64,000 nt of DNA from assembly GCA_963782715.1 (NCBI GenBank), contig CAWAKU010000008.1:279526-343525 (forward strand). Direction: 5' to 3'. This document shows, piece after piece, positions 2 through 57,186 of the stretch; the stretch's first letter is position 1; every line of letters starts with the position of its first letter. This DNA comes from an uncultured Chloroflexia bacterium. Its GTDB lineage: Bacteria; Chloroflexota; Limnocylindria; Limnocylindrales; CSP1-4. The position numbers and the translations under genes were made by a program. Under the pieces are notes generated by a model. It was not told where the DNA came from. It worked only from the letters and a program-made list of their open reading frames with translations, and did no database searches.

Positions 2-595
2 CTCGACTGGGAGGACGTGCGTCTCGATCGCCTCTTCATCCAGGTCGGCGGCGGCGCCCTGGCGTCGGCCGTCATCGAGGGCTTCGCCGAAGCGCGCACG
101 CTCGGGCTGGCGGTCCGCGAGACGAGCATCCACCCCGTCCAGGCAGCGACGGTGGCACCTCTTGCCCGGGCCTATGAGCGGCTCGCCCATCGACTCGATA
201 TGGACGCGCCCACCGATGAGGACTTCGCCTGGGCTGCACGGCACCGCTCGGCCTTCATGTGGCCGTGGGAGACGGAGCCGCACAGCGTGGCCGGCGGGAT
301 CCTCGACGACGAGACGTACGACTGGCTGGCGATCGTCCGCGGGACCATCACCAGCGGCGGCGCGCCCGTGGTCGTCGACGAGCCGACCCTCGTCGAGGCG
401 AACGATCTCGCCGGCTCGGCGACCGGCATCGACGTCGACCCGACCGGCAGTGCCGGCCTGGCCGGCCTTCTCCAGCTCCGACGTCACGGACTCGTCTCCC
501 CGAACGAGACCGTCGCCGTCCTGTTCACCGGCATCCGACGCGACATCGCCCCGGATCCCGCCATCCCGCACGACATCACCGGAGGATCACGATGA
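2..595 (+). CDS. PLP-dependent fold-type II enzyme (threonine synthase / diaminopropionate ammonia-lyase-like), C-terminal part; 5' end lies outside the window
   Basis: Frame-2 ORF open from the window edge. The C-terminal motifs GIDVDPTGSAGLAGLL and ETVAVLFTG match the Trp-synthase-beta superfamily C-terminus. Family call is from motif memory, not a search. Confidence 0.55.
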   Translation, partial: LDWEDVRLDRLFIQVGGGALASAVIEGFAEARTLGLAVRETSIHPVQAATVAPLARAYERLAHRLDMDAPTDEDFAWAARHRSAFMWPWETEPHSVAGGILDDETYDWLAIVRGTITSGGAPVVVDEPTLVEANDLAGSATGIDVDPTGSAGLAGLLQLRRHGLVSPNETVAVLFTGIRRDIAPDPAIPHDITGGSR

Positions 596-1545
596 GGAGT
601 TTCCTGGGCCGCGACATCCTGTCCCTGAAGGACTTCGGACGCGACGATTTCTTCCGCGTCTTCCAGGTCGCAGACGACCTCCGGCCCTTCGCGCGCGACC
701 GGCGCAACACCGACCTGCTCAAGGACAAGACGCTGCTGACGGCGTTCTACCAGCCGAGCACGCGAACCCGCCTGTCGACGGAAGCGGCGATGCATCGGCT
801 CGGCGGTCACGTCCTCGGCTTCTCGGACGCGAAGATGACCCGGGCGGGCGACTTCTACCAGGAGTCGATCAAGGACACCTTCCGGATGCTCGAGTCGTAC
901 GGCGACGTCATCGCCATCCGGCATTTCCAGGAAGGCGCGCCGGCCGAGGCGGCCAAGTGGTCGTCCGTGCCGATCATCAACTGCGGTGACGGCTGGGGCG
1001 AGCATCCCACCCAGGTCCTGACCGACCTGTACACGATCCTGCTGGAGCGCGGCACGCTCGACGGGCTCAGCTACCTGCTCGTCGGCGACATGCGCATGCG
1101 AACGATGCATTCGCTGCTGTACGCGCTGTCCCAGTTCGATGCCGAGGCGATCGTCGTCAGCCCGCCGGACATGGCGCTCCAGCCCGAGTTCAAGGCCGAG
1201 CTCGACGCTCGGAACGTCGCCTATCGCGAGGCGGCCACGGTCAGCGAGGCCATCGGCGAGGCCGACATCATCTACATGGAGCCGGTCGTCCAGGCCGACT
1301 ACACCCAGTCGCGCGTCGAGCGGTCCGGCGAGACCGGCCTGACCCCGGAGGCCTACCAGGTCACCCGGGAGCTCCTGCGCACGAGCGCGAAGCGGAGCTC
1401 GATCATCCTCCACTCGCTGCCGCGGATGGACGAGCTGCTGCCCGACGTCGACGAGACGCGCCACCAGCGCTACTGGGCTGAGGCGTTCAACGGCGTCGCC
1501 CTCCGGATGGCGCTCCTGTCGCTCGTCCTCGGCGCGGCCGAGTAA
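592..1545 (+). CDS. aspartate carbamoyltransferase-like carbamoyltransferase (PyrB-like paralogue)
   Basis: ATG at 592 overlaps the upstream stop. Motifs STRTR, HPTQ and HSLP (variant of HPLP) are present. The C-terminus HSLPRMDEL...YWAEAFNGVALRMALL matches ATCase HPLPRVDEI...YFQQA.NG...RMALL. Confidence 0.8.
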   Translation: MRSFLGRDILSLKDFGRDDFFRVFQVADDLRPFARDRRNTDLLKDKTLLTAFYQPSTRTRLSTEAAMHRLGGHVLGFSDAKMTRAGDFYQESIKDTFRMLESYGDVIAIRHFQEGAPAEAAKWSSVPIINCGDGWGEHPTQVLTDLYTILLERGTLDGLSYLLVGDMRMRTMHSLLYALSQFDAEAIVVSPPDMALQPEFKAELDARNVAYREAATVSEAIGEADIIYMEPVVQADYTQSRVERSGETGLTPEAYQVTRELLRTSAKRSSIILHSLPRMDELLPDVDETRHQRYWAEAFNGVALRMALLSLVLGAAE

Positions 1546-1553
1546 GGGCGGCC

Positions 1554-2531
1554 ATGCAGACGAACCTTCGCGGTCGCGACCTGATCAGCCTCCAGGAGTG
1601 GACGCGCGAAGAGGTCGACACCGTCCTCGACGTCGCCACGTACCTCAAGATGCAGCGCGCCCTCGGCCAGCCGACCCCGCTGCTGCGCGACAAGGTCCTG
1701 GCGATGCTGTTCTTCTTCTCGAGCACGCGCACACGCGCCTCGTTCGAGGCCGGGATGGCCCAGCTCGGCGGCCACGCCCAGTTCATCGAATCGCGGACGA
1801 CCCAGATCGCCCACGGCGACACCGCCCGCGAGATCGGCGAGATCCTCGGTCGCTACAACGACGGGATCGCCATCCGGAACGTGGACTGGGGCGTCGGCAA
1901 CCAGTACATCCGCGAGGTCGCCGAGGCGAGCCGTGTGCCGGTCCTCAACATGCAGTGTGATCTCTACCACCCGCACCAGGTCCTCGCCGACCTGCTGACG
2001 ATCAAGGAGAAGTTCGGCGATCCGCGCGGCCGGACCATCACCATCTCCTGGGCATACGCCGCGAGCTACCAGAAGCCGATCAGCGTGCCCCAGGACCTCC
2101 TGCTCCTCGCCACCCGGTACGGCATGAACGTCCGGCTGGTCCACCCGCCGGAATTCAGGCTGATGGACGAGGTCGTCGCCCAGGCGACCGACAACGCCCG
2201 CCAGTCGCGCGGTTCGCTCGAGTTCATGGACGACATGGACGCGGGTGTCCGAGATTCGGACGTCGTCTACGCCAAGAGCTGGGGGCCGCTGCTCGTCGCC
2301 AAGGACGACGCCGACGGCGCGGCGATCTCGGCTCGCTACAGCGACTGGATCACCGACGAACGCCGGATGGACCTGGCCGGTCCGGATTCGATCTACATGC
2401 ACCCGCTCCCGGCCGACCGCAACGTCGAGGTCGCCGACGCGGTCATCGACGGTCCGCACTCGGTCGTCTACGACGAGGCGGAGAACCGACTCCACGTCCA
2501 GAAGGCCGTCATGGCCCTCACGATGGCCTGA
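1554..2531 (+). CDS. ygeW: YgeW-type (knotted) carbamoyltransferase of unknown substrate
   Basis: Motifs SSTRTR, HPHQ and HPLP. Long stretches resemble E. coli YgeW from memory (TQIAHGDTAREIG, NMQCDLYHPHQVLADL, WAYAASYQKPISVPQ, DVVYAKSWGPL, IYMHPLPADR). Confidence 0.8.
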   Translation: MQTNLRGRDLISLQEWTREEVDTVLDVATYLKMQRALGQPTPLLRDKVLAMLFFFSSTRTRASFEAGMAQLGGHAQFIESRTTQIAHGDTAREIGEILGRYNDGIAIRNVDWGVGNQYIREVAEASRVPVLNMQCDLYHPHQVLADLLTIKEKFGDPRGRTITISWAYAASYQKPISVPQDLLLLATRYGMNVRLVHPPEFRLMDEVVAQATDNARQSRGSLEFMDDMDAGVRDSDVVYAKSWGPLLVAKDDADGAAISARYSDWITDERRMDLAGPDSIYMHPLPADRNVEVADAVIDGPHSVVYDEAENRLHVQKAVMALTMA

Positions 2532-2566
2532 CCCCGAGGCCCCGACGGCCCGAAGGAGCACGAACG

Positions 2567-3511
2567 ATGGACAAGACCCTGGTCGTCGCGATCGGCGGCA
2601 ATTCGCTCATCAAGGACGCGAAGCATCAATCCGTCCCGGACCAGATCGCGGCGCTGGCCGAGACGAGCGTCCATATCGCCTCGGCGATCCGAGATGGCTG
2701 GCACGTGGCGATCGGCCACGGCAACGGCCCGCAGGTCGGATTCATCCTGCGCCGGTCCGAGCTGGCCGCCCACGAGCTGCACGAGGTGCCGCTGGACGTG
2801 TGCGATGCCGACAGCCAGGGGGCCATCGGATACGAGCTGCAGCAGACGCTCGGCAACGATTTCCGACGGATGGGCTTCGACCGACGGGCGGTCACGCTCG
2901 TGACACAGGTCGAGGTCGCCCGCGACGACCCGGCTTTCCAGAACCCGACCAAGCCCATCGGCACGTTCATGGACGAGGAGCGTGCTGCGGAGCGTCGCGA
3001 CAAGGACGGCTGGACCGTGGTCGAGGATGCCGGTCGCGGCTGGCGCCGCGTCGTGCCCTCCCCGCGCCCGATCCGGATCGTCGAGGAGGACGCGGTCCAG
3101 GCACTGCTCCGCGAGGGGTTCGTGGTCATCACCGTCGGTGGCGGCGGCGTCCCGGTCGTCGCCGACGCCTCGGGCTGCCTGCATGGCGTTGCGGCGGTCA
3201 TCGACAAGGACTACGCCTCGTCGCTGCTGGCCACCGCCGTCGGGGCGGACGTCTTCGCGATCACGACATCAGTCGAACGAGTCGCGCTCGATTGGGGCAA
3301 GCCGAGCCAGACCTGGATCGATCACCTGACCGTCGCTGAAGCGCGCGGCTACCTGGCCGAAGGCACCCATTTCATGCCGGGCAGCATGGCTCCCAAGATC
3401 CAGGCTTGCCTGGAATTCCTCGAACGCGGTGGCGGCGAGGCGCTGATCACGGCACCGGCCGATCTGGAGCTCGCCCTCAAGGGCAAGGCGGGGACCCGGA
3501 TCACCCTCTGA
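2567..3511 (+). CDS. arcC: carbamate kinase
   Basis: Begins MDKTLVVAIGGNSL and carries the GHGNGPQVG motif. The 314-aa length is typical for carbamate kinase. Confidence 0.85.
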   Translation: MDKTLVVAIGGNSLIKDAKHQSVPDQIAALAETSVHIASAIRDGWHVAIGHGNGPQVGFILRRSELAAHELHEVPLDVCDADSQGAIGYELQQTLGNDFRRMGFDRRAVTLVTQVEVARDDPAFQNPTKPIGTFMDEERAAERRDKDGWTVVEDAGRGWRRVVPSPRPIRIVEEDAVQALLREGFVVITVGGGGVPVVADASGCLHGVAAVIDKDYASSLLATAVGADVFAITTSVERVALDWGKPSQTWIDHLTVAEARGYLAEGTHFMPGSMAPKIQACLEFLERGGGEALITAPADLELALKGKAGTRITL

Positions 3512-3527
3512 CCCCGCGCGGCGTCAC

Positions 3528-3552
3528 TGCCGCGATCGGTGACAGGCCGTTG
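3528..3552. terminator. inverted repeat GGTGACAggccgtTGTCACC between convergent genes; candidate bidirectional terminator
   Basis: A 7-bp perfect inverted repeat with a 6-nt spacer, immediately after the carbamate kinase stop and before the stop of the minus-strand gene. There is no clear T-tract, which is common in high-GC genomes. Confidence 0.35.
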
Positions 3553-3567
3553 TCACCCCGTCATCGG

Positions 3568-4317
3568 TCATCCGGCCGGGTCGAGGATGGAGGTCTGCTC
3601 GATGGCCTCCATGTGCGCCGCGTCGAGCGCCACGAGCAGGTCGTGGACGTGGCGCACCTCGTCCGGCGACGGTTCGGTGCCGACGAGCCGGTCGAGGGCG
3701 TCGAGCCATGTCGCGAATGCGACCCACGCCGCCTGCCAGGTCCCGCCGCGAGCGGCTTCCCGGCGCCCTTCGTGGGCGAGCTCGCGGATCGCCGCCTGTC
3801 TGGTGCCCTCATCGCCGCTGTCGGTGATCTGTCGGACGATCCCATTGGCCGCCACGAGCGACTCCTCGAAACGGGTCCACGACAGGCGGGCATCGAACCG
3901 CTCGCCCAGCAGCCGACGAGGCAGACGCGCGATCGACCGATCGCGGTTCGGAACGCACACGACGACCGAGAAGTAGACACAGGCGACGAGGTAGGTCGCG
4001 AAGGCGATCGAGGTCGGCACGTCAGACCACGTCGCGACGACCTGCGCGACCGCCGTGAGGATCGTCAGGGGCACGACGAGGAGCACGATGACGCGCCACG
4101 GATAGCGTTCCGCGATCAGGTACAGCGTCAGTCCAGATGGGAGGACGGTCCAGATGAGCGGGTGGACCCACACGTTCATCGCGACGGCATAGGCGAGCCA
4201 GGCGACGAAGAGCAGGAGCCCGACACCGGTCGGCCAGTTGAGCGGGTCCAGCCGGGAAAGGCGGGCGGGTCGGGGTTGATCGCTCACCTGAGACATGGTG
4301 ACCCTGGTGGCGGACAC
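3568..4317 (-). CDS. hypothetical integral membrane protein with cytoplasmic C-terminal domain
   Basis: 249-aa ORF. The N-terminal half has about 4 hydrophobic helices; the C-terminal half is soluble and Arg/Glu-rich. No recognisable family. Confidence 0.5.
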   Translation of the reverse strand: MSATRVTMSQVSDQPRPARLSRLDPLNWPTGVGLLLFVAWLAYAVAMNVWVHPLIWTVLPSGLTLYLIAERYPWRVIVLLVVPLTILTAVAQVVATWSDVPTSIAFATYLVACVYFSVVVCVPNRDRSIARLPRRLLGERFDARLSWTRFEESLVAANGIVRQITDSGDEGTRQAAIRELAHEGRREAARGGTWQAAWVAFATWLDALDRLVGTEPSPDEVRHVHDLLVALDAAHMEAIEQTSILDPAG

Positions 4318-4383
4318 GTCAAGTCAGGTGGTCGCGGCATCGCCGACTCTCGGTTTGCCGAAGCGGTTCCGGGACCTCCCAGA

Positions 4384-4755
4384 ATGGTGGTCAGGAGGGA
4401 CGTCTTGGAACTGCTTCTGTCTTCCGCTGGCATCACGAACACGAGCATCCGCGACACGCTGGTCGACCTCCTGGGCAAGCCCATCGCAGAATCCAGTGCC
4501 CTGTGCATCCCCACCGCGTCGTATGCCAACGTCGGCGGCGCCGCCCTGGCATGGCGGTTCATCAGCGGACAGGAACCGCGGACGCCCATGTGCGAATTGG
4601 GATGGAAGTCCCTTGGCGTGCTGGAGCTCACCGCGCTGCCCAGCATCGAGGCGGACGGCTGGATCCCCATGGTCCAGGAGACCGACGTCCTTCTCGTGAA
4701 TGGCGGCGACCCCATGTATCTGTGCCACTGGAAACTGTTCCCCGCAGCGGGCTGA
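4384..4755 (+). pseudogene. peptidase S51 (dipeptidase E, PepE)-like, 3'-truncated remnant
   Basis: The N-terminal 120 aa align in architecture with PepE (ELLLSS...ALCIPTASYA ... LLVNGGDPMYL, cf. GGGNTF). The ORF stops roughly 100 aa short of a full S51 peptidase and no RBS is evident. Confidence 0.35.
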
Positions 4756-4776
4756 CCGCGACGACGTCGCGCCGGC

Positions 4777-5353
4777 TCAGGCGGACTCGAGGCGTCGCAG
4801 CGCTTCGAGGACGGCCGCCTCGACCGTATCCATGTCCGCGAAGCCGAGGTCCAGCCGGAGCGTCGCCGACGCCGTCAGCATCGCGTTATACGGCATCCCG
4901 GGGTCGCTGGAGGCACGGAAGTCGGTGCGCACCAGCATGACCGGCCTCTTGCCATACGCGTAGCCGCACTCCCAGGCGGTGCCGGAATCCGGGTCCGCGC
5001 CATCCATGATCGCGACCAGCGCGTCCGACCAGTCGATCCCGCTGACGTCGGTGGCGAAGACACCGGCGGCGTCCCTGCCCTTTTCCTGCTCCTGCGGCAG
5101 GAAGACCTCGTGACCGGCGGCGCGCAGCCGGTCGGCCAGCGCCGCGTATTAGAAAGCGGCAGGAAGACCTCGTGACCGGCGGCGCGCAGCCGGTCGGCCA
5201 GCGCCGCGTTCCAGTCTCGTTCGGCGGGCTGAACAGCGGGCCGCCACGTAGAGCTTCACGGGTGAGTATGCGAAAAATCCAGTCTCGTTCGGCGGCGCTG
5301 AACAGCGGGCCGGCCACGTAGAGCTTCACGGGTCGAGTATGCCGGAACGCCAT
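4777..5353 (-). pseudogene. nucleoside 2-deoxyribosyltransferase-like gene disrupted by internal imperfect tandem duplications
   Basis: The N-terminus MAFRHTRPVKLYVAGPLFSAAERDW and C-terminus DGADPDSGTAWECGYAYGKRPV are in different frames. With the duplicated segments removed, one continuous about 150-aa Ndt-family protein is restored. Confidence 0.6.
5089..5345. repeat. two adjacent imperfect tandem duplications (about 54 bp and about 62 bp units), each joined by an 8-11 bp AT-rich filler
   Basis: Unit X gcggcaggaagacctcgtgaccggcggcgcgcagccggtcggccagcgccgcgt occurs twice around filler attagaaa. Unit Y ccagtctcgttcggcggcgctgaacagcgggccggccacgtagagcttcacgggtcgagtatgc occurs twice around filler gaaaaatc. 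One Y copy carries three 1-bp deletions. Confidence 0.75.
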
Positions 5354-5407
5354 GGGCTCCCGGGCGCGATCCTCTGCCCGTGCCCACGGGGGCTCCCGGT
5401 ATGGCGG

Positions 5408-5451
5408 TGGCGCCCCCGGACAGTGGCGCCCCCGGACGGACGCCGGGGCTC
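5408..5451 (-). repeat. tRNA-Arg 3'-end-like direct repeat, copy A (tandem partial and fuller copy)
   Basis: tggcgcccccggacag followed by tggcgcccccggacggacgccggggctc. It shares the 14-nt core gcgcccccggacgg with the 3' end of tRNA-Arg at 13790. The tail ends in palindrome cccggacggacgccggg. Confidence 0.5.
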
Positions 5452-5619
5452 ACGAAGCAAATCGTACGACCCTCTCGCGTGGTACGCGACCGCATAAGCC
5501 TGGGAGATCCCAGGCCGCTTCGTCGGCGAGACCCGTGACAGCCGCCATGGGTCTCGCCGGATCGAGGTGGCATGACGCCGCGTTCTCCAGCGCGTTGCGC
5601 AAGGTAGCGCGCACAGACG

Positions 5620-6876
5620 TCAATAGGTCGGATCCGTGCCACTGCGGGAGTACACGTGACTGGTGATGACGTCTACGACGTCCTTGTCGGAGCACTCGCC
5701 CGATCGGTCGACGCACTCGGTAAGGACGAGCGTGAGCCGGTCGCCGACGATGGTCCAGCGAAAGTTCGTGCGGACGCCCCCGCGATTGGTCATCGTCAGC
5801 TTGTCGCCGTCAACCGTCATGACGCCGCCGTCCCCCTCGGGAATGCCTTGGATCAGCCACAGCTCCCCGTCGAGGACGAAGCCCTGCCACCACTGGTCGC
5901 GGTCGAAGCCGAGCCGTAGGGCCACGTCTGCCCCCGACTTTCCGGCCTCCGCGGCGACATCCACCATCATCTTGCGAAGCGTCTCGGGACTGTCGTCCGT
6001 GACCGGGTAGTCCCAGGTTCCACGGAACGCCTCGAGGGCCGCGATGTCCTGGTCCGGGGTGAGCACCGGCGCGATCGCCGTAGGTCGGCTTGCGTCCCGC
6101 AGCTGCTCGATCCCATCGTCCGTCAACGCCGCCTGGTACACCGTTGCGGCGTCGATTGCCCCCGGCCAGAAGTCAGACGGGCCACCACGCGCCATGGAGC
6201 CACCGACCATCATCGCGCCGCGTGCCTGCCACGGCGCGTCGAAGGACGTCTCGGCCGCGCGCTTGCCATCGACGTAGAGACGGATCTGCCCAGCGGGCTG
6301 ATCGAACACGCCGGCGACATGGACCCAGGCGGCCGGATCGATTGCCGGACCGGTTGCTCGCGCACGGACCGTGTGCCCGGGGTCGTTTGTGTCGAGGTCC
6401 TTCATCGAGAAGGCCCAGTCTCCCTCGCCCAGACCGAGATAGAACGCGGAGGCTGTCTCGCCGACCTGACTGAGGACCGTCCCGAACGGCGACTTCTCGC
6501 CGACGGTCACCCAGGCCGCGACGGTGAAGCTGGCGGTGGTGTCGAGAGGGCCCGGCCCCGCCGTCGTTCCGTATCCCGTGACGCCGTCGAGCACGACCGC
6601 TCCGTGGTCGAACTCGTGCGTGCCGACGAACGTCAGTGGGTCGCCGGGTGACCCGTCGCCGTTGTTGTCAAGCTGCCATGCTGCCAGCGGCGTGGGCTCG
6701 ACGCTCGCTGCTGGTGTCGACATCGCCGAGACGGTCGGCGTGGGCTCGACGCTCGCGGAGGGCACCGGCGTCGTCGCCGATGCGGACGGCGTGGTGCCCG
6801 CGGTGCAGGCGGCGAGCAGGAGCGCGGCCGCGATTGCGGTCAGGTTCGAGGCGCGCGGGAACAAGGCACGTCGCAT
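5620..6876 (-). CDS. secreted lipoprotein with LamG/concanavalin-A-like lectin domain
   Basis: Start MRRALFPRASNLTAIAAALLLAACTAG with lipobox LAAC; RBS ggagac upstream. A Thr/Pro/Ser-rich linker is followed by a LamG-like region (FTVAAWV, IRLYVDG). Confidence 0.7.
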   Translation of the reverse strand: MRRALFPRASNLTAIAAALLLAACTAGTTPSASATTPVPSASVEPTPTVSAMSTPAASVEPTPLAAWQLDNNGDGSPGDPLTFVGTHEFDHGAVVLDGVTGYGTTAGPGPLDTTASFTVAAWVTVGEKSPFGTVLSQVGETASAFYLGLGEGDWAFSMKDLDTNDPGHTVRARATGPAIDPAAWVHVAGVFDQPAGQIRLYVDGKRAAETSFDAPWQARGAMMVGGSMARGGPSDFWPGAIDAATVYQAALTDDGIEQLRDASRPTAIAPVLTPDQDIAALEAFRGTWDYPVTDDSPETLRKMMVDVAAEAGKSGADVALRLGFDRDQWWQGFVLDGELWLIQGIPEGDGGVMTVDGDKLTMTNRGGVRTNFRWTIVGDRLTLVLTECVDRSGECSDKDVVDVITSHVYSRSGTDPTY

Positions 6877-6899
6877 CGGAGTCTCCTTGCGCGTTGGGT

Positions 6900-8207
6900 T
6901 CAGGGAGCGAGCCGCTGCCAGCTCCAGTACGCCTGGTCGGTCGACACGTCGTACGACTTGGGCACGACATGCGCGAGGACGGTCGGCTCGGCGGTCGGGT
7001 CGCGGGCATGCAGCGCCAGAAGCTCGCAGTCGGTGGCGGAGATGCAGCGGAGCGCGGTGATCTCCGTGCCGTCCGGCGACCAGGCGAGGCTGTCGGCGGT
7101 GGCGCTGAGGGGTGCCAGGACCGTCTCGGTACGGGTGGCGAGGTCGAGCACGACGACCTGCCACTGCCGGCCGCCCGTCGATCGCCAGTACGCCAGCCGT
7201 CCGCCGTCCGGTGACCACGCCGGCTGGGCCTCGTCCTTCTCGGTGCCGGCGATCACCTTCTCGTCCACGCGATCGGTCGCGAGGAGGAGGATGTCGCGAT
7301 CGAGTCGGCCCGAGTCGCCGTAGTGCACGGCGATCCGCTTGCCGTCGGGCGACCAGCGCGGCAGCTGCAGGAAGCCATTGTCGGCGTTGCTCGGCCGGTC
7401 GCTGAGCCGGACGAGGCCGCTGCCATCGGGCGCCGAGACGTAGAGGAAGCTCTCCGGGCGTCGCGTCGGCTCGCCGAGAAAGGCGATGCGATCACCCGAG
7501 GGCGACCAGGCCGGGTATTCGACCGCGAACAGCGACGGGGGCAGAAGCTCGGTGCGGCCGCCGGTATCGGCGTCCACGATCCAGATCTTCGCCGCTGTGT
7601 CTGCTCCGCTCGCGTCGACGATCGAGACGGCGATCCGCCGCGAGTCGGGGTTCCAGGCCGGAGCTTCCTCGCCCATCACGATACCGGCAGCCGAGTCGGT
7701 GGTGACAAGCTCACGGGCGCCGGAGCCGTCCACGTTCGCGACCATGAGTGACGTCTTCGTGCCCTGCTCGCGCAGGAAGGCGACCCGTTGGCCGTCGAGC
7801 GAGACGCTGGGCCGCGTGTCGGTGCCGAGCCCGGTCGACAGCGGGCGCTGGTCGTTCCCGTCCGGCTCGAGCGCGAGGATGTGGCTGCCGTCGTCGTAGA
7901 TGACGAGGCCGTTCGCCGCGATCCCAAAGGGGGCCGGGATCCGGGGCCGCGAGCCAACGATGCCTTGGACGACCAGTGCCGCAATCAGCAGCACGAGGAG
8001 GACGACCCAGGCCAGGCGCACCGTCGCGGCGGCGTGCAACTCGGGCAGGTCGAGCAGGATCCAGTTGCGCGGGAACGTCCAGCCGGGCCGCTGGCGCTCG
8101 GTGCGCGCCCGAGCCCGCACCTCGGGCAGGTAGTCCGGCACACTCGCCGGCGCGGCGTCGGCCAGGAGATCGGCGAGACGGCGGTCGAAGGGATCTCGGG
8201 CGTTCAC
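6900..8207 (-). CDS. membrane anti-sigma factor with periplasmic TolB/PD40-like beta-propeller
   Basis: Its start overlaps the stop of the upstream ECF sigma gene by 4 nt. It has one TM helix (VRLAWVVLLVLLIAALVV). Repeated W/YSPDG motifs are present (PAWNPDSRRIA, PAWSPSGDRIA, PRWSPDGKRIA, PAWSPDGGRLA, LAWSPDGTEI). Confidence 0.75.
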   Translation of the reverse strand: MNARDPFDRRLADLLADAAPASVPDYLPEVRARARTERQRPGWTFPRNWILLDLPELHAAATVRLAWVVLLVLLIAALVVQGIVGSRPRIPAPFGIAANGLVIYDDGSHILALEPDGNDQRPLSTGLGTDTRPSVSLDGQRVAFLREQGTKTSLMVANVDGSGARELVTTDSAAGIVMGEEAPAWNPDSRRIAVSIVDASGADTAAKIWIVDADTGGRTELLPPSLFAVEYPAWSPSGDRIAFLGEPTRRPESFLYVSAPDGSGLVRLSDRPSNADNGFLQLPRWSPDGKRIAVHYGDSGRLDRDILLLATDRVDEKVIAGTEKDEAQPAWSPDGGRLAYWRSTGGRQWQVVVLDLATRTETVLAPLSATADSLAWSPDGTEITALRCISATDCELLALHARDPTAEPTVLAHVVPKSYDVSTDQAYWSWQRLAP

Positions 8208-8764: not shown

Positions 8765-8952
8765 GCTCTACCTCGTCTATCACGCGTCCTCAAGTCGCGC
8801 TTACAAGGTACGGCGGATGGAAGAGGGCATCGGTTCGCGGATGACGGCAACCGTTGTCGGTGACCAGGCTATCCAGCCCGACGACGTCGACGCCGCCACG
8901 TGAGACTTGACAGGCCCCGTGGCTCGCCAACACTCAAAGGTTGGGCAGGAAC

Positions 8953-9028
8953 TGGCGCCCCCGGACGGACTCGAACCCCTGGCAGCAACGCGGCGTCTTG
9001 GACTGGTACCTCGAGGTGGGCTGACGCC
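8953..9028 (-). repeat. pseudo-tRNA / tRNA-Arg 3'-end direct repeat, copy B
   Basis: The first 23 nt match the tRNA-Arg(CCT) 3' end at 13791-13813 exactly (gcgcccccggacggactcgaacc). The remainder is tRNA-length but cannot form an acceptor or T stem. Homologous to copy C. Confidence 0.5.
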
Positions 9029-9050
9029 CTGCCCTGCCCTGCCCTGCTGT
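9028..9050. repeat. pentanucleotide microsatellite (CCCTG)x4
   Basis: gccctgccctgccctgccctgc, immediately after pseudo-tRNA copy B. Confidence 0.5.
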
Positions 9051-9191
9051 GAGGAGACTCGAGCGCGGCGAGTTCAATGCCGACGGAAGCCGTTTCGCTG
9101 ACTCCGCGTTCGACGGTCCCGAGCGGAGTGGACCGTCACCTTCCAACGAGATCACCGATGAGACATCGCACGCGCAGATGTTTCCCTTCGA

Positions 9192-11540
9192 TCAGGGCAA
9201 CGGGAACCCGGCCTCGGCGAGGGCCTGTGGGCTGACCAGCGGAGACTTCTCGCCGAACGTGCGGCGGAGCAGAAAGTACTCGGGCAGCGGACGGTCGTCC
9301 GTGACGAGCGGACCTGAGCCCGCGAACGACGCAACCTGCGCACCCTTCAGCCAGGACAGTCTCGGAATGAGAGCCGCCCAGCCATCCGCGGTCTTCGCAG
9401 GAGAGTCGTACGCCCCGGAGATGTCCTCGAGAATGCCCGGCCGCGCGAGCACCTCGCGCACGCTCCGGTCTTCCAACACCATCGGCTGGTCGGAACCGAG
9501 CAGGAAGAACCCGTAGTTGCCCGGGCTGGCGAGCACCAGAACTTCGGGGAAGACGTCGGAGAAGGTCCGGACGTGCGCCTGAAGCTCATCGATCGTCATG
9601 CCGTACGAGACCCACTGCATCATGATCCCGCCGGGGGTCAGGCGCTCGTGGCCGGCCTGGTAGTACTCGAGCGACGAGATGACTGTGATACCCGACGCCT
9701 CGACCGGCGGCGGCGGGTCGGTCACGATGATGTCGTACTTCTTGTCGGTTAGCTCCATGTGGTTCCGGCCGTCGGCGACGATGACGTGGCCGTTCGGGTT
9801 CGCGCGGATCGCGGCGGCGTCCGGGAAGAAGTAGCCGAACATCGACGGCACCGAGGGCACCAACTCCACCGCATCCGTCGTCAGGCCCGCGATGACGCTC
9901 GAGCGGAAGCCCGAGCCCATCCCGAAACAGACGATCAGTGCGCTTTTCGATTCCGGTCGGGCGATGAGTGGCAGGGTCACCATCAGCCTCGCGTCGACGG
10001 TGAGGGCTGTCATCGATGCACCAGTGACCCACAGCTGCTTGAACCCGTTGACGCTGCCGGCCTGGACGGATGCGATCTCGTCCTCTCGACTCGCGAACAG
10101 CTCCCCATCCCGATTCGCGATGTTCGCAACGCTCGGGTCGACGAGGATCCCGCTGGTCGCCAAGGCCACGACGAGAACCACCGCGGTCACCGCTCCCACG
10201 CCATACGTGGTCACTCGCCCGACGGCAGATCTGATCGGCGCCGCGTATGCGAGGCAGAGACCCAGAGCGATGTTGATGAGGGCGATGACACCGATCGCGT
10301 CGGGCGCTCCGATGGCCGGGATGACGAAGAACGGCACCACGAACGTGCCGACGATGGCGCCGAGTGTGTTCGCGGCAAGCAGCAGGCCGGCGCTCGTCGC
10401 GACCTTGCCGCTGCGGCCCGCCACGAGGGCAGACGAAGCCGGGAAGCTGAGGCCCATCACGATGGTCGCGGGCAGCACGACGAGTAGGGCCTGCGAGAAC
10501 AGGACGCCGATGATGCCGTCGATCCGACCTTGCTGGACGGTGTATTGGAAGGGTTTCGAGAGGACGAAAACGACTCCGGCGAGGGCCAGGACGCCGATCA
10601 CGATGTTGGTCCGTGCCAACAGAGCGACCGGCTGCCGGATCCAGCGCCGGAGCAGGGTGAAGAGCACCGCACCGATCGCGATCCCGGTGAGGAATACCAC
10701 GAGGATCAGCGTGAAGACGTATGCGTAGTTGCCGCTCCCCGACGCGAGGAGCCGCGTCCAGAGGACCTGGTACGCGAGCGAGGTCAGGCCGGAGACGAAC
10801 GCCACGACCAGCGCGATCCGGGGTCGCGGGTCGGTATCTGCGGTCCCATCAGGGACCGTCGACGCCTCGGGGGCGGTGGCCGTCGAGACAGCCTGGGCGA
10901 CTGCATCGGACTCGGACGCTCGACGCCGTCGGTCGAGGACGACCGCGGTCAGGCCCGCGAGGGCAGAGCAGCCCGCGGCAACCACCAATGTCTCCGACAG
11001 GCCGAGGACCTCGATCAGCACCAGGCCGGCCGCCGCCGCGCCGATGATCGCCCCGATCGTGTTCGCGGCGTACAGGCGGCCGAAGGCCGAGCTCAGGTGG
11101 GTCGCGTCCCGGGAGAGATAGCGGGTGAGCGTCGGGAGGGTCGCGCCCATGAGGATCGTCGCCGGTGCGAGCGCCAGGAGCGCGAGCCCGAACCGAACGA
11201 GGCCGAGGACCTGCGGCGACGCCTCGAGAGATGTGAACGCGCCCTGGTAGACCGAACCGATGAGCCGGAACGTCACCGGCGTCAGGAGGACGACGACCAC
11301 GAGGATCGCCTCCAGGACGCCGTACAGCAGCAGCGGTCGCGGGACCCTGTCCGCGAGCCGTCCCCCACCCCACGAGCCGATCGCCATGCCGCCGAAGAAC
11401 CCGGTCAGGATCACCGAGACGGCCTGCGTGGTGTTGCCGAAGACCAGGACGAGTTGCCGCGACCAGACGACCTCGTACATCAGGCCGGCAGCGCCGGAGA
11501 GGATGAAGATGGCCAGGATCGGCCAGCGCCGAGACGTCAC
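9192..11540 (-). CDS. fused MFS-type membrane domain / spermidine synthase (aminopropyltransferase)-like protein
   Basis: About 12 TM helices in the N-terminal 500 aa. The C-terminal domain has PABS-like motifs (VADGRNHMELTDKKYDIIVTDPPPP, GGIMMQWV). The start is uncertain: GTG at 11540 or ATG at 11840. Confidence 0.7.
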   Translation of the reverse strand: MTSRRWPILAIFILSGAAGLMYEVVWSRQLVLVFGNTTQAVSVILTGFFGGMAIGSWGGGRLADRVPRPLLLYGVLEAILVVVVLLTPVTFRLIGSVYQGAFTSLEASPQVLGLVRFGLALLALAPATILMGATLPTLTRYLSRDATHLSSAFGRLYAANTIGAIIGAAAAGLVLIEVLGLSETLVVAAGCSALAGLTAVVLDRRRRASESDAVAQAVSTATAPEASTVPDGTADTDPRPRIALVVAFVSGLTSLAYQVLWTRLLASGSGNYAYVFTLILVVFLTGIAIGAVLFTLLRRWIRQPVALLARTNIVIGVLALAGVVFVLSKPFQYTVQQGRIDGIIGVLFSQALLVVLPATIVMGLSFPASSALVAGRSGKVATSAGLLLAANTLGAIVGTFVVPFFVIPAIGAPDAIGVIALINIALGLCLAYAAPIRSAVGRVTTYGVGAVTAVVLVVALATSGILVDPSVANIANRDGELFASREDEIASVQAGSVNGFKQLWVTGASMTALTVDARLMVTLPLIARPESKSALIVCFGMGSGFRSSVIAGLTTDAVELVPSVPSMFGYFFPDAAAIRANPNGHVIVADGRNHMELTDKKYDIIVTDPPPPVEASGITVISSLEYYQAGHERLTPGGIMMQWVSYGMTIDELQAHVRTFSDVFPEVLVLASPGNYGFFLLGSDQPMVLEDRSVREVLARPGILEDISGAYDSPAKTADGWAALIPRLSWLKGAQVASFAGSGPLVTDDRPLPEYFLLRRTFGEKSPLVSPQALAEAGFPLP

Positions 11541-11890
11541 GGGAGGCGGCCGGTCGAGCGCGATAGCGGCAAGGTCACTGTCCGGCCGAATCCACGACAG
11601 CAGTCTGCTCGATGGCGAGCATGCGCGCACGGCGATGTCAAGGTCACGCTGGCTGGAATCGGCATGTGAAGAAGATCCGCTCCGTGTCGTTCGGACATTG
11701 GTCGGCGTCGCCCCACCTCGCAAGTCCGGTCGGGCTCGGATGCGCCCATCCAGTCTGCGGCGTCGGACTGGTTCGTTCGGTGCGCGGGGCCTCCACGAAC
11801 ACAGGGCGCGAACGAAATCGTCGACGTTACCCCTTGACAAGGTAGCCGCCGGGTCTCAGGCCACACACTCCGACGTTGAACAGGCGCCTC

Positions 11891-11969
11891 CGGACGGACT
11901 CGGGCCCCCAATACCATCGCAGCGTTCTCGCCTGGTATCTCGAAGTCGTCTGAGCGTCCTCCCGCATTC
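11891..11969 (-). repeat. pseudo-tRNA / tRNA-Arg 3'-end direct repeat, copy C
   Basis: aggcgcctccggacggactcgggccc has 3 mismatches to the tRNA 3' end. The following about 50 nt are homologous to copy B (ctggtatctcgaagtcgtctgagcgtcc vs ctggtacctcgaggtgggctgacgcc). Confidence 0.5.
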
Positions 11970-12041
11970 CTGAGCGGACAGCACACGAGCGCCATACGGC
12001 ACTGGACAGGCGGATGCGGGACTCTGAGGCTGCAAGACGAC

Positions 12042-12440
12042 ATGACTCGGTTCACGTTGCGGGCGACGGTGACCACGACAGCACCCAGCGTGGACGCGCT
12101 CGATGCCGTCGAGTCGGCGCTCAGAGCCGCCGCTGCCGGTCCGCGACGTGACGCGACGGTCGTCACAGGGGCGCTCGGGTCGAACCTCAAGGCGCGCCTG
12201 TGGGGATCCAAGCTCGCCAAGTCTGAGTGGCTGCCGGTCACGATCACCGTCGCAGTCCTTGATCGTGGTGAGGACCGGTTGCTCTCCGTCGATGTGTCCG
12301 AGGACTTCGGCTTCGGCACCCTGACCGGCGCCGGGAACGAGTACCGACGCAGGTGCCAGCAGGTGGCTGCCACGATTTCGGACGACCTGGTCCGGCGGCT
12401 TCCTGCTGGCACGGTCACCCCGCCGGTGGAAGTCACCTAG
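12042..12440 (+). CDS. hypothetical protein
   Basis: 132-aa ORF sitting alone between repeat copies C and D. No recognisable motifs; coding status is moderate. Confidence 0.4.
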   Translation: MTRFTLRATVTTTAPSVDALDAVESALRAAAAGPRRDATVVTGALGSNLKARLWGSKLAKSEWLPVTITVAVLDRGEDRLLSVDVSEDFGFGTLTGAGNEYRRRCQQVAATISDDLVRRLPAGTVTPPVEVT

Positions 12441-12571
12441 CAGCGGACGTTCCGACCCGTCCCCGGGTGGGGCCCGACCGAGCCGAAGGCAGTTCCTCGA
12501 CCACACCCAGAGGAACCGCCGGACTGCCTCTCGCGGCCAGGCATCAGGCGCGATGGCAGCCGACAGGGATG

Positions 12572-12598
12572 TGGCGCCCCCGGACGGGCGCGGGGCTC
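12572..12598 (-). repeat. tRNA-Arg 3'-end-like direct repeat, copy D
   Basis: tggcgcccccggacgggcgcggggctc shares the 14-nt core with the tRNA 3' end. Its tail resembles copy A (ggggctc). Confidence 0.45.
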
Positions 12599-12801
12599 TA
12601 ACTGCAACGCTCGCCGGATACACGTGACAGCACCCCGTTGGTCCCGGGGGCGACTGCATGACGGATCACCGGTTTGGGATCGGCGCCGGGGCTGATTCGG
12701 GTTGGCCGCATCTTGGCGCAGCACCCGCTCCAGCTCCTTGGCCGTCATCGCTCGACCGGTCCGCTTCCGTCAACTCCTCCGCGGCGCCGTCTATGGCGCC
12801 C

Positions 12802-13647
12802 CTATTGCACGACGATGTCCTTGATCCCCAGGGTCGCGCCAGGGTCGAAATGCGTGACGTCGAAGACGAGGACGGCCTCCACGCGCTCCGAGCCCGCGTG
12901 CCAGCCGTGTTCGTAGATGTTCCGGATCGGCTTCCCGCCCTCATCGAGTGAGCGGATCTCGAGTCCGACGCCGCCATCGACGATGGAGACGCCCGTCGGC
13001 CAGGACTCGACGAGGGCGAAGTCCGCAGCCGTCAGGATGCCGTTGGGCAGACGCGCCTCGCCCACCGAGATCTCGTAGTGGCCGACGTGATCGATGGGGA
13101 TGTCCAGGCGACTGACGCGGAGCGGCGTCGCGTGCGCGAGCGCGTCGGGGGCGATGGACGGTCGGCCCCCCTGCAATTGGGCCTCGGTGCCGTCGTAATA
13201 CCCACCGTGCATCACCGATGACGCTTCGAGATGCGGATCGTCCGCGCACTGGACGCCGCTGACTCCCGGACAGATCTGGTCCAGCCTGTGGACCGATCCG
13301 TCCCGGAGGGTCACGCTGACGTCCACGGGTGGGCCAATCCCGTAGGCACCGAGCTGCGGGTTGGGCTGCGGTGTGGGCTGCGGGATCACGTCGAGGCTGG
13401 CGATCTGCTCCCGGGTCGTGCCGAGCTGGGCGGCCACCCAGTCCGTCATCGTCTGGCATCGGACGGCGTTGTAGACCTGGCTACACGGGATCCCAGCCGC
13501 CGCAGACGTGGTGGTTGCGGATGACGACGTGCTGGTCTGGGGCGCCGAGGACGCGGTCGGTGCCACCGGGGATCCGAGCGTCCGGCTGCAGCCAACCGCT
13601 AGCACCGCGACCGCCAGAGCCAATGTGAGGATGACAGTGCGTCTCAT
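12802..13647 (-). CDS. hypothetical lipoprotein (Cys-rich, Thr/Ser-rich linker)
   Basis: Start MRRTVILTLALAVAVLAVGCS with lipobox AVGC. Several conserved-looking Cys (IPCSQVYNAVRCQ, ICPGVSGVQC). It lies immediately downstream of tRNA-Arg. Confidence 0.6.
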   Translation of the reverse strand: MRRTVILTLALAVAVLAVGCSRTLGSPVAPTASSAPQTSTSSSATTTSAAAGIPCSQVYNAVRCQTMTDWVAAQLGTTREQIASLDVIPQPTPQPNPQLGAYGIGPPVDVSVTLRDGSVHRLDQICPGVSGVQCADDPHLEASSVMHGGYYDGTEAQLQGGRPSIAPDALAHATPLRVSRLDIPIDHVGHYEISVGEARLPNGILTAADFALVESWPTGVSIVDGGVGLEIRSLDEGGKPIRNIYEHGWHAGSERVEAVLVFDVTHFDPGATLGIKDIVVQ

Positions 13648-13789
13648 GACGCCATGATGGCCGGTCAGCTTTCCTCGCGCCCGAAATGACGGCACGTGTA
13701 GTCGAGCGTCGAGAGACAAGCGCTTCTGGTTACGGGACGGGCAGTGGAGGCGCGACCGATCTTCGCGGACTCCGCAACGGCATTTGCAA

Positions 13790-13866
13790 AGCGCCCCCGG
13801 ACGGACTCGAACCGCCGACGCAGGCCTTAGGACGGCCTCGCTCTGTCCACTGAGCTACGGGGGCGC
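13790..13866 (-). tRNA. tRNA-Arg (anticodon CCT)
   Basis: The reverse complement folds as a cloverleaf: acceptor GCGCCCC/GGGGCGC, anticodon stem AGGCC/GGCCT, loop GTCCTAA (anticodon CCT), T-loop TTCGAGT. CCA is not encoded. Confidence 0.85.
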
Positions 13867-43564: not shown

Positions 43565-44338
43565 ATGGACATGAGGCCGACTCCCAGGTCGACCGGTGCC
43601 GACGTCGCGACCGACCCGGCTGCCGCGGTCGTGGCAGAGCGCCTCGTCCATGCCATCGATCGGCTCGATCTGCTCGACCTCCAGGGCGGCGACCTGTCCG
43701 ATTGGACCTTGACCGAGGGCGAGTGGATCGCCGACCACCTGCCGGCCTCCGCCATCGGGGAACCCGCCGTCCGGGCATACGCAGACGCCGTGGTCCTGCT
43801 GCTGAGCGTGCTCAAACGTGACGCCGACACGGGCAGCGCAGTCGCGGCGGTCATCGCGACCCGCACGGCGATGGTTGCTCTCGCGGGCAGACGTGCCATC
43901 CCGGGCCGATCGACGATCGAGTCGATGACGGTCACCCACCAGGTGGGTCAGACGATCCCGTTCAGCATCTCCGACGCGACCATCGATGTCACCGTCGCAT
44001 CGATCGACGGCTGGAGCGGATCCTCGTACGACACGCCGCGGGGCGGCCACCGATGGGTGACCATCGAGGTCCTGGTCACCGGCGTCGCGGGGACGCTCGA
44101 CGGACCGCCCAGCTACACCGACTTCACCGTCGCCGATGCCTCCGGTCGCGTGTTCGAGCCTGAGCCGGCGTGGCGCGAGCCGCAGCTCCCGTTCGGCTCG
44201 GACTTCGAATCCATCCGGGAAGGCCAGACCGTTCGAGGCTGGATCACGTTCGAGCTGCCGAGCACGGTCGACGTGGGGACCATCCAGCTGACCGAGGTCG
44301 ATGGTGGCGCGTGGGCGTTCGCCGGGATCAACGGATGA
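43565..44338 (+). CDS. hypothetical protein with DUF4352-like C-terminal beta-sandwich
   Basis: 257 aa. C-terminal RGWITFELP pattern is typical of DUF4352. Confidence 0.5.
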   Translation: MDMRPTPRSTGADVATDPAAAVVAERLVHAIDRLDLLDLQGGDLSDWTLTEGEWIADHLPASAIGEPAVRAYADAVVLLLSVLKRDADTGSAVAAVIATRTAMVALAGRRAIPGRSTIESMTVTHQVGQTIPFSISDATIDVTVASIDGWSGSSYDTPRGGHRWVTIEVLVTGVAGTLDGPPSYTDFTVADASGRVFEPEPAWREPQLPFGSDFESIREGQTVRGWITFELPSTVDVGTIQLTEVDGGAWAFAGING

Positions 44339-45635
44339 CGGCAGCTCGGCCGGGTTCGTGGTCGGACCGAGCGAACCGGCACTTCCCACAGGGCTCCAAC
44401 GGCGAATACGACTTCCCCGACGGCCTGGCACCCGTCTTCCAGCGTGCGAACGGCTGCCGCGTCTGGGACACGGACGGACGCGAGTACGTCGACTACACGA
44501 TGGCCTGGGGCTCGGCCCTGGTCGGTCACGCGGCGCCGCAGCTGGTCGAGGCGGTCACGCGCCAACTCTCGTCCGGCATCAACCTCGCCGCATTGAGCAC
44601 TCAGCTGGTCGAATTGGCGGAGCGCCTGAACGACCTCGAGCCGTGGCTGGACAAGGTCCGTTTCGTCTCGACCGGCACCGAGGCCACGATGACGGCCATC
44701 CGCATCGCCCGCGGCGCCACCGGCCGGTCGAGGATCCTGAAGTTCATCGGGGCGTTCCACGGCTCGTCGGTCGAAGGCGTGGCCAACTTCTTCTGGTCCG
44801 ACCCGGCCCGCACGCCCGCTGCGGAGGCGACGGGGACCGGCGGTGCGCATGCGGTCGATGACCTGCTCGTCGCGCCCTACAACGACCTGGCCACGGCCGA
44901 GGAGCTGATCCGTGCCCATCGGCACGAACTGGCGGGGGTGATCATCGACCCGGTCCAGCGCTCCGTCTTCGCCGATCCCAGCTTCCTGCACGGCCTGCGG
45001 CGGGTGACCGCGAATGCGGCGTCCCGCTCATCTTCGACGAGGTCGTCTCGGGCTTCCGGATCGCGCTTGGTGGCGCGGCACAGTACTACGGCGTCCGGCC
45101 GGATCTCGTGGCCTATGGAAAGGCGCTTGGCGGCGGCTTCCCGATCGCGGTGGTCGGCGGCCGGGCGGAACTCATGGACGAGGTCCGCGAGGACCGCCAT
45201 CACACCTCGCGGTACGTGTGGGCGGCGTCGACGACGGGCGGATCGCCGTTGACCTCGACGGCGGCCCATGCAGTGCTCGACATCCTCGAGTCGCCCGGCG
45301 CGTACGAGCACATGTTCGCGATGGGCCAGCGGTTGCGCGACGGGATCGCCGCGGCGTTCGATGGGACCGGTCTCCCGGTCCGGGTCTACGGGGATGGACC
45401 GTTGGCCCAGTTCCGGATCACAGGTGAAGCGGTCACCGACATGGCCTCGGAAGCGCGGGCCGACAACGACCTACGCCGCCGGCTCGATCTCGCGCTGCTG
45501 GGTCGGGGGCTGTTCATCAATCCGATGCTGACCAAGGTCTACGTCTCGCTGGCCCACCAACCGGCCGACATCGACCGCTACACGACGTCCCTTGCCGAGG
45601 AGGTCCACGCGCTCGCCGCGGCTCGCGCGGGCTGA
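44335..45635 (+). pseudogene. class III aminotransferase (glutamate-1-semialdehyde aminomutase-like), frameshifted
   Basis: The N-terminal part (frame 1) has FVSTGTEATMTAIRIARG. The remainder (frame 0) starts at ECGVPLIFDEVVSGFRIALGGAAQYYGVRPDLVAYGKALGGG. A 1-bp deletion is inferred at about 45010-45012 (accgcgaatgc). Confidence 0.7.
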
Positions 45636-55190: not shown

Positions 55191-57186
55191 TCAGCCGCCG
55201 AGCCGCGCCACGACGCCGGCATAGTCCACGAAGAAGTCGAGCGCTCGCGGGTCGGCGACCGCGCCGGTGGCCGCGACCTCGGACAGCGGCCGGCCGAGGA
55301 GCAGCCGCTTGACAGGGACCTCCATCTTCTTGCCGGTCAGCGTCCGCGGCACGGCCGGGATCGCCACGATGTCGTCGGGCACGTGCCGTTGGGACAGCGC
55401 CGACCGGATGGCGCCGTTGATCTGGGCGCGAGTCGTGTCGTCGAGCGCCACGCCGTCGGCGAGGACCACGAACAGCGGCATCCAGTACCGTCCGTCCGGC
55501 AGCTCGAGGCCGATGACGAGGCTGTCCGCGACCTCCGGCAGCCGCTCGACGACGCTGTACAGCTCGCTCGTCCCGAACCGGATGCCGCCACGGTTGAGGG
55601 TCGAATCCGACCGACCCTCGATGACCGCGCTCCCCCGCTCGGTGATCCTGATCCAGTCGCCGTGGCGCCAGACGCCGGGGAACATCTCGAAGTAGCTCTC
55701 GCGATAGCGGGCACCGTCCGGGTCGTTCCAGAAGAAGAGCGGCATGGACGGCAGCGGCGCGGTGAGGACCAGCTCGCCGGTCTCGCCGACGACGGACCGG
55801 CCGGCCGGATCGAACGCCTCCACCCGAGCGCCGAGCGCCCGTGCCTGGAGCTCCCCGGCATGGACCGGCAGCCACGGGCAGCCGCCGACGAACGCGCTGA
55901 CGACGTCGGTCCCGCCGCTCATCGACACCAGCCAGACGTCGGGCTTGACCGCGTCATAGACCCAGCCGAAACCGTCCGGCGACAGCGGCGAGCCCGTCAC
56001 GCCGATGGAGCGGAGCGCCGACAGGTCCCGACCGTCGCGCGGTCGGATCCCCGCCTTCATGCACGCGCCGACGAACGCCGCGCTCGTCCCGAACAGGCTG
56101 ACGCGGGCCTCGGCGGCGAGGTCCCACAGCGACGTCGAGCGTCGGGTAGCCCGGGCTGCCGTCATACAGCACCGGCACGCCGCCGACCAGCATCGAGCCG
56201 ACGAGGAAGTTCCACATCATCCAGCCGGTCGTGGTGAACCACGACATGCGGTCGCCCGGTCGGACATCGAACTGGAGACCGACCGCTTTCGCGTGTTCCA
56301 GGACGACGCCGCCGTGGCCGTGGACGATCGCCTTCGGCAGGCCGGTCGTGCCCGATGAGTAGAGCACCCACAGCGGATGGTCGAACGGGACGGGTTCGAA
56401 GGTGAGCGGTTCGGCGGGACCCGAAGAGAGATCGGCCCAGGCCATCTCGCGTGGGTCACCCGGCGCGGCCTCCGGGTCGAGATATGGGATGAGGACCGTC
56501 CGCCGGAGGGACGGAAGGGCGGCCCGGAGCTCCTCGATGACCGGGCGGCGATCGAACGGCTTGCCGCCGTAGGTGTAGCCGTCGACGGCGATCAGGACCG
56601 TCGGTTCGATCTGGGCGAAGCGATCGACCAGGCTCTGCGTCCCGAAGTCGGGCGAACACGACGACCAGATCGCCCCGATGCTCGCGCAGGCGAGCAGCGC
56701 GACGACGGCCTCGGGGATATTCGGGATGACGGCCGCGACCCGATCGCCGCGACCGACCCCCAACCGTCGCAGGCCGGTCGCGACCGCCGCGACCTGGTCC
56801 GTCAGCTCCGCACCCGACACGGCTCGCAGTGGCTGCCGCTCGGACTGGAAGAGGAGCGCGGGTGCGTCGAGATCGACGCGGCCGAGGAGCGCCTCGGCGT
56901 AGTTGAGTCCGGCGCCGGCGAACCAGCGTGCACCGGGCATCACCGTGGGTTCCACGGCGTGATCCCATTGCCCGTGCATCGGGATCCGGTAGTAGTCCAC
57001 GACGGACGTCCAGAAGCCCTCGAGGTCGTCGACCGACCAGCGCCACAACGCGGCATAGCCGTCGAAGGTCAGCCCGCGTTCGCGTTCGAGCCAGCGCCGG
57101 TAGTCGGTCAGAGTCGTCGCCTCCTGGAAGGCAGCGGGCGGCTCCCACAGCAGCGCGCCTTCGGCGGACTGCGCCTGGTGGCTCAC
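55191..57186 (-). pseudogene. acetoacetyl-CoA synthetase (AMP-forming acyl-CoA ligase), frameshifted
   Basis: The N-terminal 390 aa (YSSGTTGLPKAIVHGHGG ... VLYDGSPGYP) and the C-terminal 320 aa (SLWDLAAEARVSLFGTSAAF ... TLTGKKMEVPVKRLL) are in different frames. The join lies around 56125-56150, consistent with a single 1-bp indel. Confidence 0.75.

Follow-up and report, generated by a model that had tools for sequence, protein, structure and literature searches.

A 130-nt self-copied block disrupting a nucleoside 2-deoxyribosyltransferase-family gene of an uncultured soil Chloroflexota: evidence leaning towards a long-read technical error

We examined a 64-kb stretch of DNA from an uncultured soil Chloroflexota (hereafter, the window). 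A gene of the nucleoside 2-deoxyribosyltransferase (ndt) family was found to be interrupted there by a 130-nt block, which consists of a copy of the gene's own sequence and two short A-rich fillers. The evidence leans to an artefact over a repair footprint. With modest confidence, we attribute the block to a technical error, that is, a local insertion that reads would not support or that polishing missed, in a long-read metagenome contig probably of Nanopore and Flye type. The coordinates of the relevant features are collected in Table 1.

Table 1 The disrupted gene, the parts of the repeated block and the tRNA-Arg remnants, in window coordinates.
Feature	Position	Strand	Remarks
Disrupted nucleoside 2-deoxyribosyltransferase-family gene	4777..5353	-	577 nt; 447 nt (148 codons and stop) without 5148-5277
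130-nt insertion (single-event reading)	5148..5277		Removal equivalence (see text); orthologues L001 and L002 uninterrupted across the junction
A1, outer frame-preserving copy of unit A	5094..5147		Encodes residues ~27-43 (NAALADRLRAAGHEVFLP)
Filler 1, ATTAGAAA	5148..5155		No other 8-mer of the window has 7 or more A/T
A2, inner copy of unit A	5156..5209		54/54 identity to A1
B1, inner copy of unit B	5210..5271		Against B2, three single-base deletions and no substitution
Filler 2, GAAAAA	5272..5277		Overlaps the sole A/T run of at least 6 nt in the window (5273-5278)
B2, outer intact copy of unit B	5278..5342		13 nt upstream of GTG, the GTG, codons through W25, first base of N26
tRNA-Arg 3'-end remnants	12567-12610, 11877-11953, 8948-9024, 5407-5447	-	Core CCGTCCGG(G/A)GGCGCC

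The repeats were confirmed on the + strand. The two copies of unit A are identical, and the inner copy of unit B (62 nt) departs from the outer one (65 nt) by the loss of a C, a G, and a C. These results agree with the initial annotation, which had described head-to-tail copies of two consecutive segments of the gene and three single-base deletions in one copy of the second. Its limits, however, had to be corrected: the whole repeated block covers 5094-5342 and not 5089-5345, and the fillers, given there as 8-11 bp, are 8 and 6 nt long. The second filler had been read as 'gaaaaatc', which is two bases too long, since the TC belongs to the repeat unit. Between the inner and outer copies, no substitution was found over 116 aligned positions; accordingly, the inner copy is a self-copy without evolutionary age. 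Its three single-base deletions amount to 2.5% of 119 nt, whereas the outer copies and the remaining gene are clean.

Deletion of 5148-5277 gives the same sequence as excising A1 plus its filler together with B1 plus its filler. Because B1 directly adjoins A2, and A precedes B in the native order as well, the arrangement L-A-f1-A-B'-f2-B-R can be regarded as the product of one 130-nt insertion. Between its two terminal fillers, this insertion at the A|B junction repeats first the 54 nt on its left and then the 65 nt on its right, of which 62 remain in the copy. It is more parsimonious than the two consecutive duplications that had been proposed, although the latter formally yield the same sequence. 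No microhomology was found at the junctions, and the bases bordering the copies mismatch. Read on the + strand, each of the two fillers is rich in A and lies 3' of a segment (A1 and A2-B1, respectively). The k-mers diagnostic of the junctions are GCCGCGTATTAGAAAGCGGCAGG and GTATGCGAAAAATCCAGTCTCG.

Nowhere in the window, the GC content of which is 0.70, is the DNA as AT-rich as in the two fillers, in keeping with the earlier claim that they are highly atypical for this DNA. In the 64 kb, an A/T run of at least 6 nt occurs once, whereas shuffles predict about 35, and an 8-mer with at least 7 A/T occurs at 5147-5155 and nowhere else. Exact direct repeats that are 16 nt or longer and lie within 200 nt were confined, in the whole window, to those of the block and to a PT-rich protein repeat in the LamG gene. 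Neither Tandem Repeats Finder nor a k-mer scan revealed a similar local repeat elsewhere in the window. The repeat structure and the fillers are far beyond chance. Furthermore, no second structure of the filler type was found in approximately 850 kb of related loci, about half of which come from Nanopore MAGs. In one of these loci (L007, an MFD Nanopore MAG), a 110-nt tandem duplication was observed at 7183-7402 over the 3' end of a gene (ending in HWWTLASPENHGVDIAAWPDFEDDEED and the stop); with one mismatch and a GC-rich 20-nt difference, it is ordinary-looking and not of the filler type.

The idea that the fillers are a degraded continuation of the copied sequence was rejected, as the matches (2/8 and 2/6) were not above chance. 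With Nanopore adapters, the fillers share a TTTTTC hexamer only, which we take to be meaningless. Inverted repeats were absent from 4800-5700 except for an unrelated 14-nt pair (5524-5559), and no unusual DNA fold was predicted at the junction (z -1.5). No Rfam match was obtained in 3000-7000, and no promoter-like site was found.

The assignment of the gene as nucleoside 2-deoxyribosyltransferase-like was borne out by a profile search. The restored 148-aa product matched PF05014 (Nuc_deoxyrib_tr) over the complete profile (1-117/117) with an E value of 7.9e-23 and a score of 81.3 bits, the curated cut-off being 28.8 bits. The restored ORF is 148 aa long when started from ATG and 140 aa from the GTG (5329-5327) that the homologues use. 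Thus, excising the extra copies does give the clean ORF collinear with homologues that had been expected, but not the length of 150 aa that had been stated. The restored protein was aligned without gaps to 10 homologues at 71-88% identity. E85 in the AWECGY motif, presumably the catalytic residue of the family, was invariant in all 11 aligned sequences. In spanning the full profile and in its gapless alignment to 140-aa homologues from Chloroflexota MAGs, the restored protein resembles the PF05014/PF15891 family; the difference is that the gene here is interrupted and the full protein cannot be encoded. As deposited, the gene loses its reading frame after residue 26, and the whole PF05014 domain is not encoded uninterrupted. 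In the orthologues L001 and L002, by comparison, the DNA is single-copy and continuous across the A|B junction.

The best match to the restored protein in the protein search showed 89% identity, and its N-terminal 75 aa had no protein match above 81%. GTDB genomes contained orthologues at up to 85% identity. When the 23-mers of the filler junction and of the intact junction were compared with JGI metagenome contigs, no exact match was obtained. Since the only matches are at or below 89% at the protein level, the record offers no allele from the same population, whether intact or disrupted.

The public record of this genome was then compared with the window. The LamG-domain lipoprotein of the neighbourhood is 100% identical to a protein (P0121) on an 818,652-bp contig recorded at NCBI and ENA. 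A contig of that same length also carries the sigma factor, the PD40 protein, the 410-aa N-terminal half of a frameshifted AMP-ligase as a separate protein, and, for the ndt gene, the C-terminal ORF of 76 aa (4777-5007). No full-length ndt product is on record for that contig. The deposited record therefore already holds the broken gene, and tampering with the window is excluded. The relatives are soil Chloroflexota/Candidatus Limnocylindria MAGs, many of which were obtained in the Microflora Danica Nanopore project, and the closest long relative (L081; ENA ERZ25039550 contig_2680) has a Flye-style contig name. The Microflora Danica MAGs were assembled with metaFlye and polished with one round of Medaka (PMC12313526). 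In view of these relatives, the source contig probably consists of the same Nanopore metaFlye-type data.

Consensus quality was examined by segmenting the window by third-position GC and by checking each same-strand frame change against stop codons. The gene boundaries were clean except at two places. In the aminotransferase class-III gene at 44170-45635 (+), the frame changes near 45010-45020 and the Aminotran_3 profile is split over two ORFs (12-221 and 255-357; Pfam); to judge from the bases there, this frameshift looks like one missing C in ACC(C)GCG. In the acetoacetyl-CoA-synthetase-like AMP-binding gene at 55191-57186 (-), the frame changes near 56125-56135, and the AMP-binding profile is likewise split (10-241 and 243-377; Pfam). 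The consensus is otherwise good, with sporadic single-base indels at roughly one per 30 kb. Two frameshifting indels in the other ~64 kb are to be compared with three deletions in the 119 nt of the inner copy. The inner copy has read-level rather than consensus-level accuracy; a genuine error-prone repair copy would look identical.

Frameshifts were also observed in the related sequences. In L081, which is 72-81% identical, etfA is frameshifted into two ORFs at about 1200-1228, and the etfA gene of the window is intact. Of the ndt homologues on long ENA contigs (20-80 kb), many measure 84-117 aa, as against ~140 aa, which suggests that indels commonly truncate this small gene in metagenome contigs built from long reads.

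At the corresponding position, L081, L082, and the JGI contig of P0123 lack the DNA in which the ndt gene is found. Starting at 7281, collinearity between the window and L082 (87% nucleotide identity) extends down to 5424, where the two diverge; with L081 it reaches down to 5616, and in the JGI contig an ABC transporter follows the LamG gene. The point of divergence from L082 corresponds to the last of the tRNA-Arg remnants (core CCGTCCGGGGGCGCC). This remnant contains a perfect 16-nt tandem duplication (GTGGCGCCCCCGGACA twice), and the ndt gene begins 54 nt beyond it. A tRNA-Arg(CCT) at 13791-13864 (-) is followed by the four same-strand 3'-end remnants, none of which was called as a tRNA. 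In L081, the tRNA directly precedes the sequence that lies in the window after the remnant at 8948-8991; accordingly, approximately 4.8 kb (8992-13790) looks like a degenerate island array inserted at the tRNA. This segment contains an MFS/spermidine-synthase fusion and two ORFs without a Pfam match, and no integrase was found in it.

Next to the ndt gene, a Peptidase_S51 fragment (4384-4755, +) comprises about the first 110 of 200-227 residues. Its homology stops at ...YLCHW, 21 nt separate the end of its ORF from the stop codon of ndt on the opposite strand, and no continuation was seen in other frames. The ndt gene sits in a variable, decaying island. Genuine pseudogenes are therefore expected there, and it is also in such a place that strain heterogeneity or haplotype mixing disturbs metagenome assembly. 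Synteny outside the ndt gene was searched by tblastx against 80 loci, which gave noise only. At 220-3511 (+), two paralogous aspartate/ornithine carbamoyltransferase genes and then a gene of the amino-acid (carbamate) kinase family were observed; their arrangement is like that of the arginine deiminase pathway, and all of their Pfam matches are full-length.

If the block is a technical error, a locally duplicated stretch of single-read quality would have entered the draft contig, and consensus building or polishing would have failed to remove it. The true gene of the organism would then be an intact homologue of nucleoside 2-deoxyribosyltransferase of 140/148 aa. The block may have arisen from a read glitch, from graph-edge stitching, or from a minority or damaged molecule taken as the draft, and the reads would presumably give it no support. 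This explanation is consistent with the read-like error density limited to the inner copy, with the A-rich junk at both of its ends, and with the absence of substitutions. The A-A-B-B order with fillers is unlike an ordinary duplication by slippage or unequal crossing-over, and the locus lies in a segment that is variable among close relatives. The probable data type, as judged from the 818,652-bp soil contig and the Nanopore MAG relatives, points in the same direction, as do the isolated indels in the Aminotran_3, AMP-binding, and L081 etfA genes and the truncated Ndt homologues on ENA contigs. The deletion density of the inner copy is also close to the per-base error of 1-2% given for current Nanopore reads (PMC13087279).

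Precedents for such an error have been published. Long-read bacterial assemblies commonly hold errors of tens to hundreds of bp (PMC8442456), and metaFlye and other long-read metagenome assemblers produce false duplications, indels, and sequences with at most one supporting read (bioRxiv 10.1101/2025.04.22.649783). The block resembles long-read false duplications in that a local direct duplication breaks an ORF, the copy is of raw-read quality, and other indels occur on the contig. The published cases, however, mostly concern longer repeats or rely on read clipping for their definition, and they include neither A-rich flanking fillers nor a copy inserted into its own centre. Several further points weigh against a technical error. 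We could name no specific assembler, basecaller, or polisher step that gives a copy with A-rich filler at both ends, and the ~850 kb of related loci offered no second example. With Flye, errors on isolates are usually 10 bp or less (PMC6966772). The clean consensus and intact ORFs on either side indicate adequate coverage, which should have polished out a single-read glitch. Moreover, the truncated Peptidase_S51 gene adjoins ndt in the variable island, where genuine pseudogenes are expected.

The block could instead be a genuine and very recent mutational scar, in which a break at the A|B junction was end-joined with an error-prone self-copy inserted, leaving a pseudogene in a dispensable gene. 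We consider this possible, though rather less likely than a technical error. The copy, which takes in 54 nt on the left of the break and 65 nt on its right, would have been derived from the sister chromosome or from an excised single-stranded patch, and a few non-templated A-rich nucleotides would have been added to each + strand 3' end before ligation. Indeed, both A-rich fillers are located at 3' ends of segments on the + strand, as would be expected if a polymerase had added non-templated nucleotides to one strand, and the errors are found only in the copy that would have been newly made. The insert is a near-break copy with untemplated nucleotides at junctions free of homology, as an end-joining scar requires. 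The clean consensus around the block also favours a scar, as does the variable island, where ndt has the truncated Peptidase_S51 gene and an att-like tRNA remnant as neighbours and selection on it may be relaxed.

Synthesis-dependent end joining with templated insertions has reportedly been documented in eukaryotes. To our knowledge, its footprints are well known there but hardly documented in wild bacterial genomes. A partial bacterial precedent is found in NHEJ by Ku/LigD, which gives short non-templated insertions and captures fragments (PMC6379672). The block shares with such end-joining insertions, and with those of eukaryotic synthesis-dependent MMEJ, a copy of the flank and a few non-templated nucleotides; the recorded bacterial cases, however, are additions of a few nucleotides or foreign cassettes and not a 116-nt self-copy spanning the break. 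For a break-spanning copy that sits in its own centre between an 8-nt and a 6-nt filler, we found no bacterial precedent. The deletion-only errors, a copy without evolutionary age, and the other technical-looking frameshifts on the same contig argue against a scar as well, and the junction did not appear in any second dataset searched. Neither Ku, LigD, nor an equivalent was seen among the scanned ORFs of the 64-kb window. The specific claim that the block is a natural templated-insertion end-joining footprint with A-rich 3' tails in an uncultured soil Chloroflexota (Limnocylindria-like) is accordingly offered as a tentative one.

Two independent tandem duplications, produced by slippage or template switching over backward distances of ~54 and 62-65 nt, with a filler left in each case, seem improbable. 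They would formally give the same sequence with jumps alike in size, but two events would have to share the A|B boundary to the base. Slippage is normally filler-free and uses microhomology, whereas fillers without microhomology are present here, and the junction offers no hairpin or other structure (no inverted repeat; z -1.5). In being direct head-to-tail repeats of tens of nucleotides inside a gene, the copies do resemble slipped-strand or unequal crossing-over duplications; they differ from these in the order A-A-B-B instead of A-B-A-B, in the fillers, in the lack of microhomology, and in the clustered deletions.

It is still less credible that cDNA from the ndt mRNA 5' end was captured at a break, with GAAAAA as a non-templated addition to the cDNA 3' end. 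The gene-strand copy begins 13 nt upstream of GTG, which is a conceivable transcript 5' end, and the A-rich tail is at the matching end of the antisense (+) strand. However, the search for a promoter-like site was negative, no reverse transcriptase was seen among the scanned ORFs of the window, the 5' filler is not accounted for, and the proposal is purely inferential. A deliberate or synthetic modification of the sequence or strain, which the initial annotation had listed among its candidates, is effectively excluded: the 116 nt of homology and the deletion-only errors presumably resemble a synthetic oligonucleotide, but the source is an uncultured soil MAG, and both the 76-aa fragment and the frameshifted AMP-ligase half are deposited on the 818,652-bp contig.

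Three further origins were considered and rejected. A transposable element or MITE does not fit an insert of local sequence, and relevant terminal inverted repeats are absent from 4800-5700. For a diversity-generating retroelement, substitutions at adenines would be expected, whereas the copies differ by the C, G, and C deletions only, and no reverse transcriptase was present among the scanned neighbours. Off-target integration of a CRISPR spacer was dismissed in view of the local insert, the deletion-only differences, and the wrong sizes of duplication and insert.

Under either of the two main readings, the block is no new genetic element or function. If real, it amounts to one pseudogenising event of no selective relevance, mechanistically curious yet unremarkable as a fresh mutation; beyond that, it would be of value only as a footprint left in nature by error-prone break repair, in a phylum of which little is known. 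If the block is an artefact, a local self-copy that combines the error density of raw reads with terminal junk of atypical composition would be an easily recognised signature for screening long-read MAGs, and the gene would deserve annotation as an intact nucleoside 2-deoxyribosyltransferase homologue.
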